From IMG/VR virus record IMGVR_UViG_2693429700_000023: a stretch of 10,586 nucleotides of DNA; one strand, written 5' to 3'. Origin of the DNA: a virus (Duplodnaviria; Heunggongvirae; Uroviricota; Caudoviricetes). The position numbers and the translations under genes are program-made. The stretch's first letter is position 1. Each line of letters starts with the position of its first letter. Under the pieces are notes generated by a model, which was not told where the DNA came from, did not search any database, and saw nothing but the letters and a program-made list of their open reading frames with translations. Shown one piece after another: positions 1 through 9,218 of the stretch.

Positions 1-87
1 CTGTGAGTCATATTCATCCTGACTTTCCAGAACCATACGAATCGCCCGCTGACGGACTTCGGGGGAAAAACGAGTATTTTTAGTCAT
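1..87 (-). CDS. IS3-family transposase OrfA (HTH subunit), N-terminal 29 codons, partial at window edge
   Basis: Reverse-complement translation from 87 gives MTKNTRFSPEVRQRAIRMVLESQDEYDSQ, which I recognise as the N-terminus of IS3-family OrfA proteins. Too short to appear in the ORF track. Confidence 0.6.
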   Translation of the reverse strand, partial: MTKNTRFSPEVRQRAIRMVLESQDEYDSQ

Positions 88-141
88 CCTGTTTACCTCT
101 TTCTCAGGGAGTTTAGTCTCCAGGATTTCCGGGGCGGTTCA
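1..141 (-). mobile_element. IS3-family insertion sequence, one end only (element continues beyond window start)
   Basis: Read on the minus strand from 141, the sequence begins 5'-TGAACCGCCCCGG, a TG-initiated terminal inverted repeat typical of IS3-family elements. It is followed by an SD (AAAGAGG) and an ATG at 87..85 opening a transposase OrfA-like ORF. The exact IS name cannot be assigned without ISfinder. Confidence 0.6.
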
Positions 142-887
142 TTCTGCATTGCTGCTGTTGGTGCATATGCTGACGTTAACGCATTTGCTCGGCTAATATC
201 CTGCCCTCTCGCCTGAAGTGCTTCGCCAGCCTGATTGCTGCGGATTGTCTCTGCCAACTCGCCGCGCTCAATATCCCGACCTTCCATTTGATCTTTGATA
301 TCGAAATACTTCTCATGACCGAGAGAAAACAGCGCCAGATTACCTGCGAAATGCTGGAAGCCCTGCGGGTCATTAACCTGCATTTCAGCAATAGTTTCTG
401 GAGGGATACCTAAACGACGCATCTCCTGCTCATTATCCATCATGAACCTGCCAAATGCGCCCGGACCAAGCGATGAGGCTACCTGTGCTTTGAGCGCCAG
501 ATTGCCATAATCATCCCTTTGAGCATCATCGACATAACTCATCCCTTTACGGACTTCCTCAAACTCTTCTGGGAATGCTGTAATAAGATTACGCATCTGC
601 TCCCTGTCGCCGGACGCATAAGCATCTGCATAACCTTTCTGGAATGCCGCTTTACGCTCCTGCTGTTGCTGCTGCTTATAAATATCAGCAACTCCAGCCA
701 GACCACGTAACGCGGTCAGACCAACGTTATTTGCACCTGAGCGAGCCAGTTCATTGTTTTCGCGGATCAGACCAAGCGTTGCGTTAATGTCGCTTGCCTT
801 TGGCGCATTCTCATTTTGCGTACCGATGCCAGCCAGAAAACCACCAGAATTAATACCCTGTTGCCACGTAGCCATTGATTTACCCAC
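93..887 (-). CDS. Hypothetical protein (~260 aa), 3' end disrupted by the IS insertion
   Basis: Long minus-strand ORF from the track. The track start at 887 is a GTG; the first ATG is at 875 (MATWQQGINSGG...). The last 16 codons (EPPRKSWRLNSLRKR) are encoded by the IS terminal repeat (93..141), so the native C-terminus is lost or replaced. Contains a QQQQQ run from a CTG/CAG tract near 661..676. No family recognised. Confidence 0.5.
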   Translation of the reverse strand: MGKSMATWQQGINSGGFLAGIGTQNENAPKASDINATLGLIRENNELARSGANNVGLTALRGLAGVADIYKQQQQQERKAAFQKGYADAYASGDREQMRNLITAFPEEFEEVRKGMSYVDDAQRDDYGNLALKAQVASSLGPGAFGRFMMDNEQEMRRLGIPPETIAEMQVNDPQGFQHFAGNLALFSLGHEKYFDIKDQMEGRDIERGELAETIRSNQAGEALQARGQDISRANALTSAYAPTAAMQNEPPRKSWRLNSLRKR

Positions 888-1053
888 GTCCAGTTAAAGT
901 GTAAGCCAGCGCCTTATCCATTAATCCCCGAGCAATTTCGTGGATCGTTGGCGCAACTCCTACCTCTGATTTTTTACGCTGCTCCTCCTGAATTTTCTTT
1001 ATCGCTTCCATTTGCTTCTCACTTATCAATACTGGCTTTACTGAAATAGCCAT
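880..1053 (-). CDS. Small hypothetical protein (57 aa), possibly a ribbon-helix-helix-type DNA-binding protein
   Basis: Found by hand translation (below the track length cutoff): MAISVKPVLISEKQMEAIKKIQEEQRKKSEVGVAPTIHEIARGLMDKALAYTLTGRG. ATG at 1053..1051 is preceded by SD AAGGGGG (1064..1058). The stop TAA (882..880) lies 4 nt before the ATG at 875 of the next gene. The strand-then-two-helices pattern suggests RHH, but this is inference. Confidence 0.45.
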   Translation of the reverse strand: MAISVKPVLISEKQMEAIKKIQEEQRKKSEVGVAPTIHEIARGLMDKALAYTLTGRG

Positions 1054-1066
1054 AACGCCCCCTTAG

Positions 1067-1092
1067 AACTGTATAAAACAACAGTTATTATA
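1067..1092 (-). promoter_or_regulatory. Candidate promoter -10 plus operator-like inverted repeat upstream of the 57-aa gene
   Basis: A perfect TATAAT on the minus strand (plus 1087..1092) sits about 35 nt upstream of the ATG at 1053. Immediately downstream is the inverted repeat AACTGT-N8-ACAGTT (1067..1086), between the -10 and the SD. No convincing -35 was found. Confidence 0.3.
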
Positions 1093-1145
1093 GTTTCACA
1101 AATCGCAATATTCATCATCGTAATTGCAAAATATGAAACAAATAG

Positions 1146-1181
1146 CACAAAAAAATGCCACCGCTCAGTAGCTGGTGGCAT
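1146..1181 (-). terminator. Intrinsic (rho-independent) terminator, minus strand
   Basis: The minus strand reads ATGCCACC-AGCTACTGAGC-GGTGGCAT followed by TTTTTTTGTG: an 8-bp GC-rich stem, 11-nt loop and 7-T tract. It lies downstream of the primase/ori region and upstream of the 57-aa gene promoter. Confidence 0.5.
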
Positions 1182-5885: not shown

Positions 5886-6734
5886 GTGCCACCTCCATGC
5901 GGATACGACCAGCAAAAAAGCAGACGTGATCGCGCACCAGAGAACGGCGAGCATCGCGTTCAGACTCGGCAGCAATATGATGAATTTTGGCGGTAATTGT
6001 CGGGCAATCGCGGCGAACTGCGGCGATAATCCAGATAAATTGCGGTTTTTGGGTAGGGGTAGTAGCCAGCATGTGGCAGCCTCCATTCGATAGCATGTAA
6101 CGCTACCACCGGAAACGCCAATTTCGCTGGTGGTAGCCCAGACAGGGTTGGCGTAACCGGCTCGAATGGATACCGGCGCTTCCGAAGAAGCCCCTGCCTG
6201 AGCCACCATTGATTGACAAAGGCGCTGGATTATACACCAACGCCCAAAAAATGGGTGAGTCAGACCTACGACATAAAAAAAGACGCTCGGCGCGTCATAT
6301 GTCGCCATTCGATTTACCAGGACGCCAATCCCGGCACCCGTTTTATGAGGTGCCTTATAACCATAAACCGTGTTGCCGCATAACGGCAAGCTCTTTTTTA
6401 TGGACTCCGAAAACTCGCTATTGGAAGCACCAGATGCACAGTACATCGCGCTCATTTCGTTAACGTCACGCGCGTGGACGAATGTTTTTGTGGAGTCACT
6501 ACACGAGCGGAAGACATCATCTACGACCAGAAATTTTCTGGCGCAGCCGCTGACCTTCTCAATGCTAATATCATCGCCCGAGATTTCTGATATGGTTAAG
6601 GCATCCGTTCCGACCACCAGCAAATGATAAACTTTGCTTGTATCTGCTGTATTAATGCCTGACTTTGCCGTCATATTGCTGGATTTTGGCGACATACCAG
6701 CCAGTGAAAATGTCTTCTTCTGGACGGTTAGCAT
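5667..6734 (-). CDS. Uninterrupted 355-codon ORF; the N-terminal ~220 codons look like a real unknown gene, 3' boundary unresolved
   Basis: ATG at 6734 has SD GGAGG 7 nt upstream and overlaps the upstream stop (ATGCTAA). The N-terminal region is protein-like and contains KFLVVDDVF (6510..6536). The frame stays open to 5667, but between about 6072 and 5886 the coding signal moves to another frame. The true product is therefore either a 355-aa fusion or a shorter protein with an unseen end. Confidence 0.45.
5878..6072 (-). CDS. Hypothetical small protein (64 aa) in a different frame from the 355-codon ORF
   Basis: Track ORF 5878..6096; I prefer the second ATG at 6072 ([16 protein letters not shown]...), which has SD GGAGG 7 nt upstream. 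This frame uses common codons with G-rich first positions, whereas the overlapping frame of the 355-codon ORF is Leu/Pro/Ser-rich with rare codons (CTA, TTA, CCC, CGA, ATA, AGG). Confidence 0.5.
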   Translation of the reverse strand: MLATTPTQKPQFIWIIAAVRRDCPTITAKIHHIAAESERDARRSLVRDHVCFFAGRIRMEVAHD

Positions 6735-8470: not shown

Positions 8471-8503
8471 AAGACCACAATATGAAAAACATATTGCGGT
8501 CTT
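8471..8503. promoter_or_regulatory. 33-bp near-perfect palindrome (operator-like) in the int-alpA intergenic region
   Basis: AAGACCACAATATG-AAAAA-CATATTGCGGTCTT: 14-bp arms with one mismatch, about 90-120 bp upstream of the alpA start. A palindromic TTTATAAA abuts it (8503..8510). Confidence 0.4.
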
Positions 8504-8662
8504 TTATAAAAGATAGTCAGATTGTTTTGGTTTGTTTGCTCCACAAGGGTAGAGCTACCCTGCATTTCGGCAGGATCACGCTATTAGGCGTGACATCCAG
8601 TAGTTTTAAAGAACGCCCTTTTTCAGGGCATGGTGGGCAGGCAAGAGAGCAATTGCGCTTTG

Positions 8663-9142: not shown

Positions 9143-9218
9143 TGGTGCCGATAATAGGAGTCGAACCTACGACCTTCGCATTACGAATGCGCTGCTCTAC
9201 CAACTGAGCTATATCGGC
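9143..9218 (-). tRNA. thrW: tRNA-Thr (anticodon CGU)
   Basis: The reverse complement is a 76-nt tRNA with a 7-bp acceptor stem (GCCGATA/TATCGGC), a D-arm GCTCAGTTGGTAGAGC, anticodon loop TTCGTAA (anticodon CGT), T-arm GGTTCGACTCC and a 3' CCA. The CCA end (9143..9145) faces the mobile-element side. Confidence 0.95.

Follow-up and report, generated by a model that had tools for sequence, protein, structure and literature searches.

A Small Predicted Ribbon-Helix-Helix Gene behind a LexA-Type Box and Paired TTTCA Repeats at the Head of a Satellite DNA-Transfer Operon

The small-gene locus of an EcCIMP1-like island

The 10,586-nucleotide stretch of IMG/VR record IMGVR_UViG_2693429700_000023 (hereafter the window, meaning the whole stretch) contains a phage-inducible chromosomal island (PICI) of E. 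coli, EcCIMP1-like and in a degraded state, at the tRNA-Thr/proA site. The subject of this work is a gene of 57 amino acids that lies between the primase transcription unit of this island and a homolog of the DNA-ejection protein gp20 of phage P22. The features of the small-gene locus were read on the minus strand, as the reverse complement of 1400–780, and their coordinates are collected in Table 1. An original prediction made from the letters of the window alone had listed an open reading frame (ORF), a Shine-Dalgarno sequence, a TATAAT hexamer, an inverted repeat, a 4-nt gap to the next gene and an upstream terminator, and each of these elements was found on the minus strand.

The gene itself is real and conserved, as had been proposed. 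RefSeq annotates the same small coding sequence in intact relatives (WP_001018522.1), a family of homologs exists, and a GGAGG-type Shine-Dalgarno sequence stands at the equivalent place in all relatives. To compare the promoters, we aligned on TATAAT the upstream regions of relatives from at least 12 genera and added IMG/VR loci, which gave 38 unique variants. The -10 hexamer is TATAAT in 35 of them, the remaining three reading TATACT, ATAAAG and AAATTT. A scan with the sigma-70 consensus did not call the promoter of the small gene because the -35 element (ATGAAT) is poor. The conserved promoter follows the terminator of the primase unit, which ends 9 nt before the distal of two TTTCA repeats, and the view of the gene as a separate unit with its own promoter holds.

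The direct coupling to the next gene was upheld in part. The gap is 4 nt in the window and also between the two coding sequences of the RefSeq intact loci; among relatives it ranges from -1 (an overlap) to 60 nt, so that the 4-nt coupling is specific to the lineage of the window and not a general feature. The prediction that the downstream gene is truncated by an insertion sequence was borne out; the element is IS1203, with its junction at position 141.

Table 1. Features of the small-gene locus and of the flanking island in the window (a dot marks repeats given without a strand)
Feature	Position	Strand	Remarks
End of IS1203 (IS3 family)	1..141	-	cuts the ejection-protein gene; homology to intact loci stops at 141; 100% match to IS1203 copies
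5' half of P22 gp20-like DNA-ejection protein gene	142..875	-	PF16928 (P22 injectosome protein), E 1.2e-85; phrog_917
Spacer ATCA between small gene and next gene	876-879	-	downstream ATG at 875-873
57-aa gene	880..1053	-	ATG 1053-1051, TAA 882-880; from the ORF list
Shine-Dalgarno AAGGGGG	1058..1064	-	read from sequence; 4 nt ahead of the ATG
Inverted repeat AACTGTTGTTTTATACAGTT	1067..1086	.	AACTGT (1086-1081)-TGTTTTAT-ACAGTT (1072-1067); LexA/SOS-box-like 20-mer, core CTGT-N8-ACAG
-10 hexamer TATAAT	1087..1092	-	read from sequence
Proximal inverted repeat TTGCG-ATTTG-TGAAA	1094..1108	.	between -35 and -10, centered near -21; candidate operator
Weak -35 candidate ATGAAT	1110..1115	-	17-bp spacer; matches 3/6 consensus positions
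Distal inverted repeat TTTCA-TATTT-TGCAA	1124..1138	.	30 bp upstream of the proximal repeat; second candidate operator
Intrinsic terminator closing the primase unit	1148..1181	-	terminator scan and sequence; ATGCCACC-loop-GGTGGCAT, 8-bp G+C-rich stem, then T7
Integrase fragment, 104 aa	8663-8977	-	arm-binding part; 404 aa in EcCIMP1
tRNA-Thr integration site	9143-9218		next to proA

Family and predicted fold of the small protein

The small-protein family is confined to Enterobacterales, with 45 matches in one search and 55 representatives at 50% identity in another, and its members are 53–61 residues long. They share the pattern VKPVLL-x3-Q-x6-IQE-x-ER-x-S-x2-G-x-AP(T/S)IH-x-IARGL-x-DKAL, in which R42 is invariant. 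An AlphaFold2 model built on the 45-sequence alignment (predicted local distance difference test, pLDDT, 89.7; predicted template-modeling score, pTM, 0.70) consists of an extended stretch at residues 1–11, a helix at 12–28, an 8-residue loop and a second helix at 37–54. This is the strand-helix-helix arrangement, about 45 residues long, of the ribbon-helix-helix (RHH) topology. Features that fit RHH DNA binders are a conserved Thr/Ser36 where helix B starts, the invariant R42 and the positive net charge. Based on the model, the small protein is most likely an RHH DNA-binding protein, and DNA binding by it appears probable.

Several results weigh against this assignment. At E values up to 10, no member of the 45-sequence set matched an RHH family of Pfam, a sequence-profile search of the PDB gave nothing relevant, and Foldseek against the PDB returned nothing. 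Comparison by hhalign with Arc, Mnt, CopG, MetJ, ParD, CcdA, RelB and omega gave probabilities of at most 3.6%. The model is monomeric, so that the defining beta-ribbon dimer lies outside it, and VKPVLL, the putative ribbon, has an unusually hydrophobic make-up for a strand that reads bases. NCBIfam, PHROG and PADLOC likewise offered nothing meaningful for the small protein, and it has no significant match to a curated RHH family. The original suggestion of a possible RHH gene therefore stands for the predicted topology and fails for sequence and profile similarity: the RHH fold is accepted here as the best-supported prediction for the 57-aa protein.

The N-terminal RHH domain of TraM from F-like plasmids (pED208; PDB 3omy, 3on0) has an identity of 8% to the small protein. 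TraM differs in having a C-terminal tetramerization domain, which is missing in the small protein, and in its function in conjugative relaxosome assembly. A second gene of 61 aa in the Raoultella loci was considered as a paralog of the small gene and proved to be unrelated.

A LexA-type box and two TTTCA repeats at the promoter

The inverted repeat AACTGT-N8-ACAGTT had been taken as the operator of the small protein itself. It begins at the base right after TATAAT, overlapping the promoter or transcription start, and is identical at 14 of 20 positions, with a perfect core, to the enterobacterial LexA consensus TACTGTATATATATACAGTA in the form in which PMC8072944 quotes it. Its heterology index of about 6.9 lies within the range of 2.0–11.3 covered by the 20 E. 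coli SOS boxes from which the matrix itself was derived; these values are approximate. The runner-up among the 20-mers of the window has an index of 14.9, and 6.9 was reached in none of 200 shuffled windows. The window has a single CTGT-N8-ACAG core, where 0.15 would be expected, and 29 of 200 shuffles had at least one copy, so that this occurrence taken alone is weak evidence. The box is more than a chance match because other genera keep it at the equivalent place in the promoter: it remains canonical despite a differing spacer in Serratia, Erwinia, Pantoea and Lonsdalea relatives. Within E. coli it is identical in EcCIMP1 and canonical in all EcCIMP1-type copies examined. A site that abuts the -10 hexamer is in the standard position for repression by LexA. 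Judged from the sequence, the repeat that spans the transcription start is most likely a LexA (SOS) box, and binding of LexA to 1067–1086 is fairly likely.

The promoter variants limit how far this can be extended, and their counts argue against SOS control of the whole family. Nine of the 38 variants have a canonical LexA core, 22 have CTG-N9-CAG, described as 1 bp too short and with an index of 13–16, and in the other 7 the box is degenerate. Since canonical boxes are restricted to the 9 variants, SOS control is no general rule for the family. In the N9 variants (e.g., locus L006 5968–5990, L011, L014, L028), CTGTAT and TATCAGG are kept and the spacer varies. The repeat was also considered as an RNA hairpin and rejected, as its folding energy of -7.6 kcal/mol (z -0.73) is no better than that of shuffled sequences and the stem is lost in most relatives. 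Rfam found no known RNA families in the leader of the small gene. Our literature search found no paper on LexA control in Gram-negative PICIs.

A different pair of repeats follows the protein through the family. The proximal repeat ends one base before TATAAT, its distal partner begins exactly 30 bp further upstream, and together they define the family consensus TTTCA-N5-TGMAA (M = A/C), which occurs nowhere else in the window. Both are present at fixed positions in all 38 unique promoter variants. As the repeats are found in 38/38 and the canonical LexA box in 9/38, it is the repeat pair that is co-inherited with the protein, and not the repeat named in the original prediction, whose role as the protein's own operator is not supported. 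In IMG/VR, 120 loci fit a loose pattern of proximal repeat plus TATAAT, and 26 of these also have the distal repeat; the small gene follows 25 of the 26 paired-repeat promoters, the lone exception lying at the end of its locus. The N-termini of the proteins and the half-sites of the repeats are both nearly invariant, so that covariation between them was uninformative.

A position between the -35 and -10 elements is typical of repressor operators. The Arc protein of the P22 arc-ant operon (immI) is an RHH protein of the same size class (~53–57 aa), encoded by the first gene, with its operator between -35 and -10. The small protein would resemble it as an RHH protein that heads the operon under its control, with a candidate operator between -35 and -10 whose half-sites, spaced by roughly a turn of the helix, would fit a dimer of dimers. 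The differences are that the small protein has no detectable similarity to P22 Arc and Mnt (hhalign) or to the Arc and Mnt of the EcCIMP1 helper phage Kapi1 (BLAST), that its helix A is longer and the loop between its helices numbers 8 residues rather than ~4, and that its promoter combines a LexA box with a pair of candidate operators at a distance of 30 bp, all predicted from sequence. By linkage and by analogy with Arc, the TTTCA repeats may be the binding sites of the small protein, a proposal that we hold tentatively and rate at somewhat less than an even chance. Two considerations count against it: the linkage of gene and repeats could merely reflect inheritance as one block, and the repeats could be bound by another factor, such as AlpA or a protein of the host.

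Such a factor would leave the small RHH protein to regulate in trans, at promoters of the helper or elsewhere in the satellite, with AlpA, for instance, activating the weak -35 promoter from the TTTCA repeats. The poor -35 element suits an activator-dependent promoter, helper gene expression is often disturbed by satellites, and AlpA is the master regulator needed for the EcCIMP1 cycle (PMC11773190). However, the helper phage Kapi1 shows no enrichment of TTTCA-N5-TGMAA, with 15 copies where 11.8 are expected and no pairs among them, which led us to discard the repeats as helper-phage targets. The motif is also absent upstream of the positively autoregulated alpA, and the center near -21, between -35 and -10, is typical for a repressor. 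We regard regulation in trans as improbable.

Many non-E. coli relatives have GATC-containing direct repeats (e.g., CGATCAAAACGATCAAAT) before the distal TTTCA repeat, ~65–80 bp upstream of TATAAT (L007 5910–5935, L014, L015, L018–L021), where the window has its terminator. These could be related to Dam or SeqA, or form a further binding site.

The variable cassette and the proposed regulation of the operon

The genes behind the small gene differ widely among relatives. Intact copies of the gp20-like gene encode 488 aa (e.g., L001 6766–8232), with a 701-aa 'injection protein' encoded next; the truncated protein of the window has 54% identity to the gp20 homolog of Kapi1, over residues 1–212 only. 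Some relatives carry P22 gp20 with a gp16-like protein, while EcCIMP1 and the loci L009 and L024 have a full DUF2824/gp7/gp20/SLT-gp16 set, and P22 gp14/7/20/16-like sets are among the modules found behind the shared promoter and small gene. Leclercia and Klebsiella encode T7 gp14-like and SLT proteins; Erwinia, Pantoea and others a 108-aa protein and a TMP_3 tape measure of 850–1190 aa; and Rahnella a baseplate hub with a gpV-type spike of the P2 type. Unknown large proteins are also found behind the small gene. The island ejection proteins resemble those of the helper (Kapi1, L027 27948–32582) chiefly in their N-terminal parts; between EcCIMP1 (L026) and Kapi1, identity is 83% for DUF2824, 57% for the gp7-like protein and 24–26% for gp20 and gp16.

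The boundary of this exchange lies within the small gene. Homology between E. coli alleles of the module ends at codon ~50 (window 905), ~30 nt before the stop codon (query 1–236 of 265). The constant module therefore consists of the promoter and the RHH core, and the cassette starts in the C-terminal tail. The small gene was absent from 50,697 phage genomes, which rules it out as a component of phage ejection modules and makes it part of the satellite backbone rather than of a phage-derived cassette. These variable DNA-delivery cassettes are a more unusual feature than the small gene itself. Apart from the EcCIMP1 paper, whose remark on EcCIMP1_017–019 (PMC11773190) is the only description of such cassette genes that we found, our literature search gave no paper on satellites with ejection or tape-measure genes.

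The constant position of the gene could also be read as that of an assembly factor or adaptor, e.g., for ejection or tape-measure proteins entering helper virions, whose RHH-like shape serves protein contacts. The small gene always stands ahead of proteins that are ejected from virions, its putative ribbon is hydrophobic, and sequence similarity to RHH families is missing. Nevertheless, the downstream proteins are mutually unrelated (P22, T7, tape measure, P2 spike), which makes a shared specific chaperone unlikely, and the phage genomes searched, which have similar ejection modules, lack the gene. It is inherited with the promoter and not with the cassette, as the homology break shows, and its best structural matches are DNA-binding domains. 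We give the adaptor a small chance, similar to that of regulation in trans.

Least probable is the layout first proposed, in which the small RHH protein binds AACTGT-N8-ACAGTT as its own operator and forms a toxin-antitoxin-like or fixed regulator-effector pair with the next gene: that repeat is a canonical LexA site, lost or shortened in 29/38 variants in which the strand and helices of the protein are still conserved; the protein stops right after helix B (residue 54 of 57) and has no C-terminal extension past the RHH core that could bind a toxin; PADLOC finds nothing; the intergenic gap varies; and in place of a conserved cognate toxin gene there is a P22 gp20 homolog (PF16928) that is exchanged for tape-measure, T7-core or spike genes in relatives, a variability by which a toxin-antitoxin pair is ruled out. 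Type II RHH antitoxins (ParD, TacA, CopG-type) differ from the small protein in the same respects, i.e., in a toxin-neutralizing C-terminus, a toxin gene and fixed downstream content. What remains a fair description from the original prediction is a regulator followed by regulated genes.

We return to autoregulation, in which the small protein would be a dimeric RHH autoregulator, encoded by the constant first gene of a satellite DNA-transfer operon, gated by LexA in the E. coli lineage and acting through the TTTCA repeats. Taken as a whole, we lean slightly toward this reading. Transcription would start from the promoter with a perfect -10 and weak -35 just past the primase terminator. In the E. 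coli lineage, host LexA on 1067–1086 would block the TATAAT promoter and keep the operon off; given the identification of the box as a LexA site, the operon in this lineage is most likely held by LexA and released by damage. DNA damage would remove LexA while inducing a lambdoid or P22-like helper, and the operon would be transcribed. As the RHH protein builds up, it would occupy the two TTTCA repeats and damp its own operon in an Arc-like manner. The sign of this regulation we infer to be negative. Such feedback would limit the output of satellite-encoded ejection proteins, and these homologs may enter the helper particles or interfere with them.

A related arrangement is known from staphylococcal pathogenicity islands (SaPIs), whose operon I is LexA-regulated according to PMC3152322, which cites Ubeda et al. 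2007. The two systems would share a satellite operon for virion functions behind a LexA box, with SOS induction coinciding with induction of the helper prophage. They differ in host, LexA motif and gene content (terS and cpm in SaPIs; the RHH gene and ejection homologs here), and LexA control of the small-gene operon is predicted only and not conserved across its family. The closest relative is EcCIMP1, the PICI of E. coli MP1 for which Pick et al. 2025 (PMC11773190) showed excision and transfer by Kapi1, a P22-like phage. The site and the gene order (int, alpA, antA, ash/icd, DUF927 primase, DNA-transfer genes) are the same in both, their sequences match completely from the distal repeat to the end of the start codon, and the small proteins share 87% identity. 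The window differs in its shortened integrase, in the IS1203 insertion, and in a cassette with a gp20-like and a 701-aa protein versus DUF2824, gp7, gp20 and an SLT protein in EcCIMP1. The EcCIMP1 study reported superinfection immunity and tested only the alpA promoter; nothing in it concerns the small gene, its promoter or LexA.

The other minus-strand genes of the window's island encode the integrase fragment, reduced to the arm-binding domain, AlpA, AntA, Ash and a TOPRIM/DUF927 primase. The integrase fragment and the IS1203 at 1–141 indicate that this copy is probably immobile. Just downstream of the primase gene, at 1500–1612, GTTGGTTCA is repeated three times directly and three times inverted (as TGAACCAAC) around an A+T-rich spacer, and these repeats look like the iterons of a satellite replication origin. 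Between these and the terminator are two 15-nt palindromes, TACGAAAATTTCGTA (1377–1391) and TACGAAAGTCTCGTA (1434–1448), 57 bp apart. Rfam identified on the minus strand, at 6126–6213 and 6276–6353, a C4 antisense RNA (79.5 bits) and the Hfq-binding small RNA isrK (67.1 bits), both inside the region read as the 355-aa 'Ash' ORF, which points to an RNA immunity element of the P1/P4 type in the island. The alpA leader (8487–8513, minus strand) contains the inverted repeat ACCGCAATATG-TTTTT-CATATTGTGGT, a possible site for AlpA or a repressor, with a sequence unrelated to the TTTCA repeats.

The module is present in 501 of 5426 complete E. coli genomes (~9%) and in many other Enterobacterales, and the small-gene operon contains the only phage-structural genes of these satellites. 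For annotation, it defines a new RHH family without a Pfam entry and corrects a tempting toxin-antitoxin call; the small gene is a new, Pfam-less first-gene regulator of the small RHH type on an SOS-type satellite promoter, its DNA binding and SOS control being predictions. More speculatively, the promoter with its two TTTCA repeats and LexA-type box, together with the RHH gene, might be a constant expression platform for a swap-in cassette site, through which widespread enterobacterial satellites give helper virions their own delivery proteins matched to the helper type, with the RHH protein timing or dosing them. The pairing would be of P22 gp14/7/20/16 with P22-like podoviruses, of tape measures with long-tailed phages and of hub and spike with P2-like myoviruses, with the T7 gp14–16-like core proteins as a further set. 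We consider both the platform and this pairing doubtful; if true, satellites would control the injection step of their carrier particles and not packaging alone. If LexA and the small protein do gate the operon, this would explain how islands of the EcCIMP1 type time their ejection proteins with helper induction, and it would offer a handle on the role of these proteins in transfer, helper interference or superinfection immunity.

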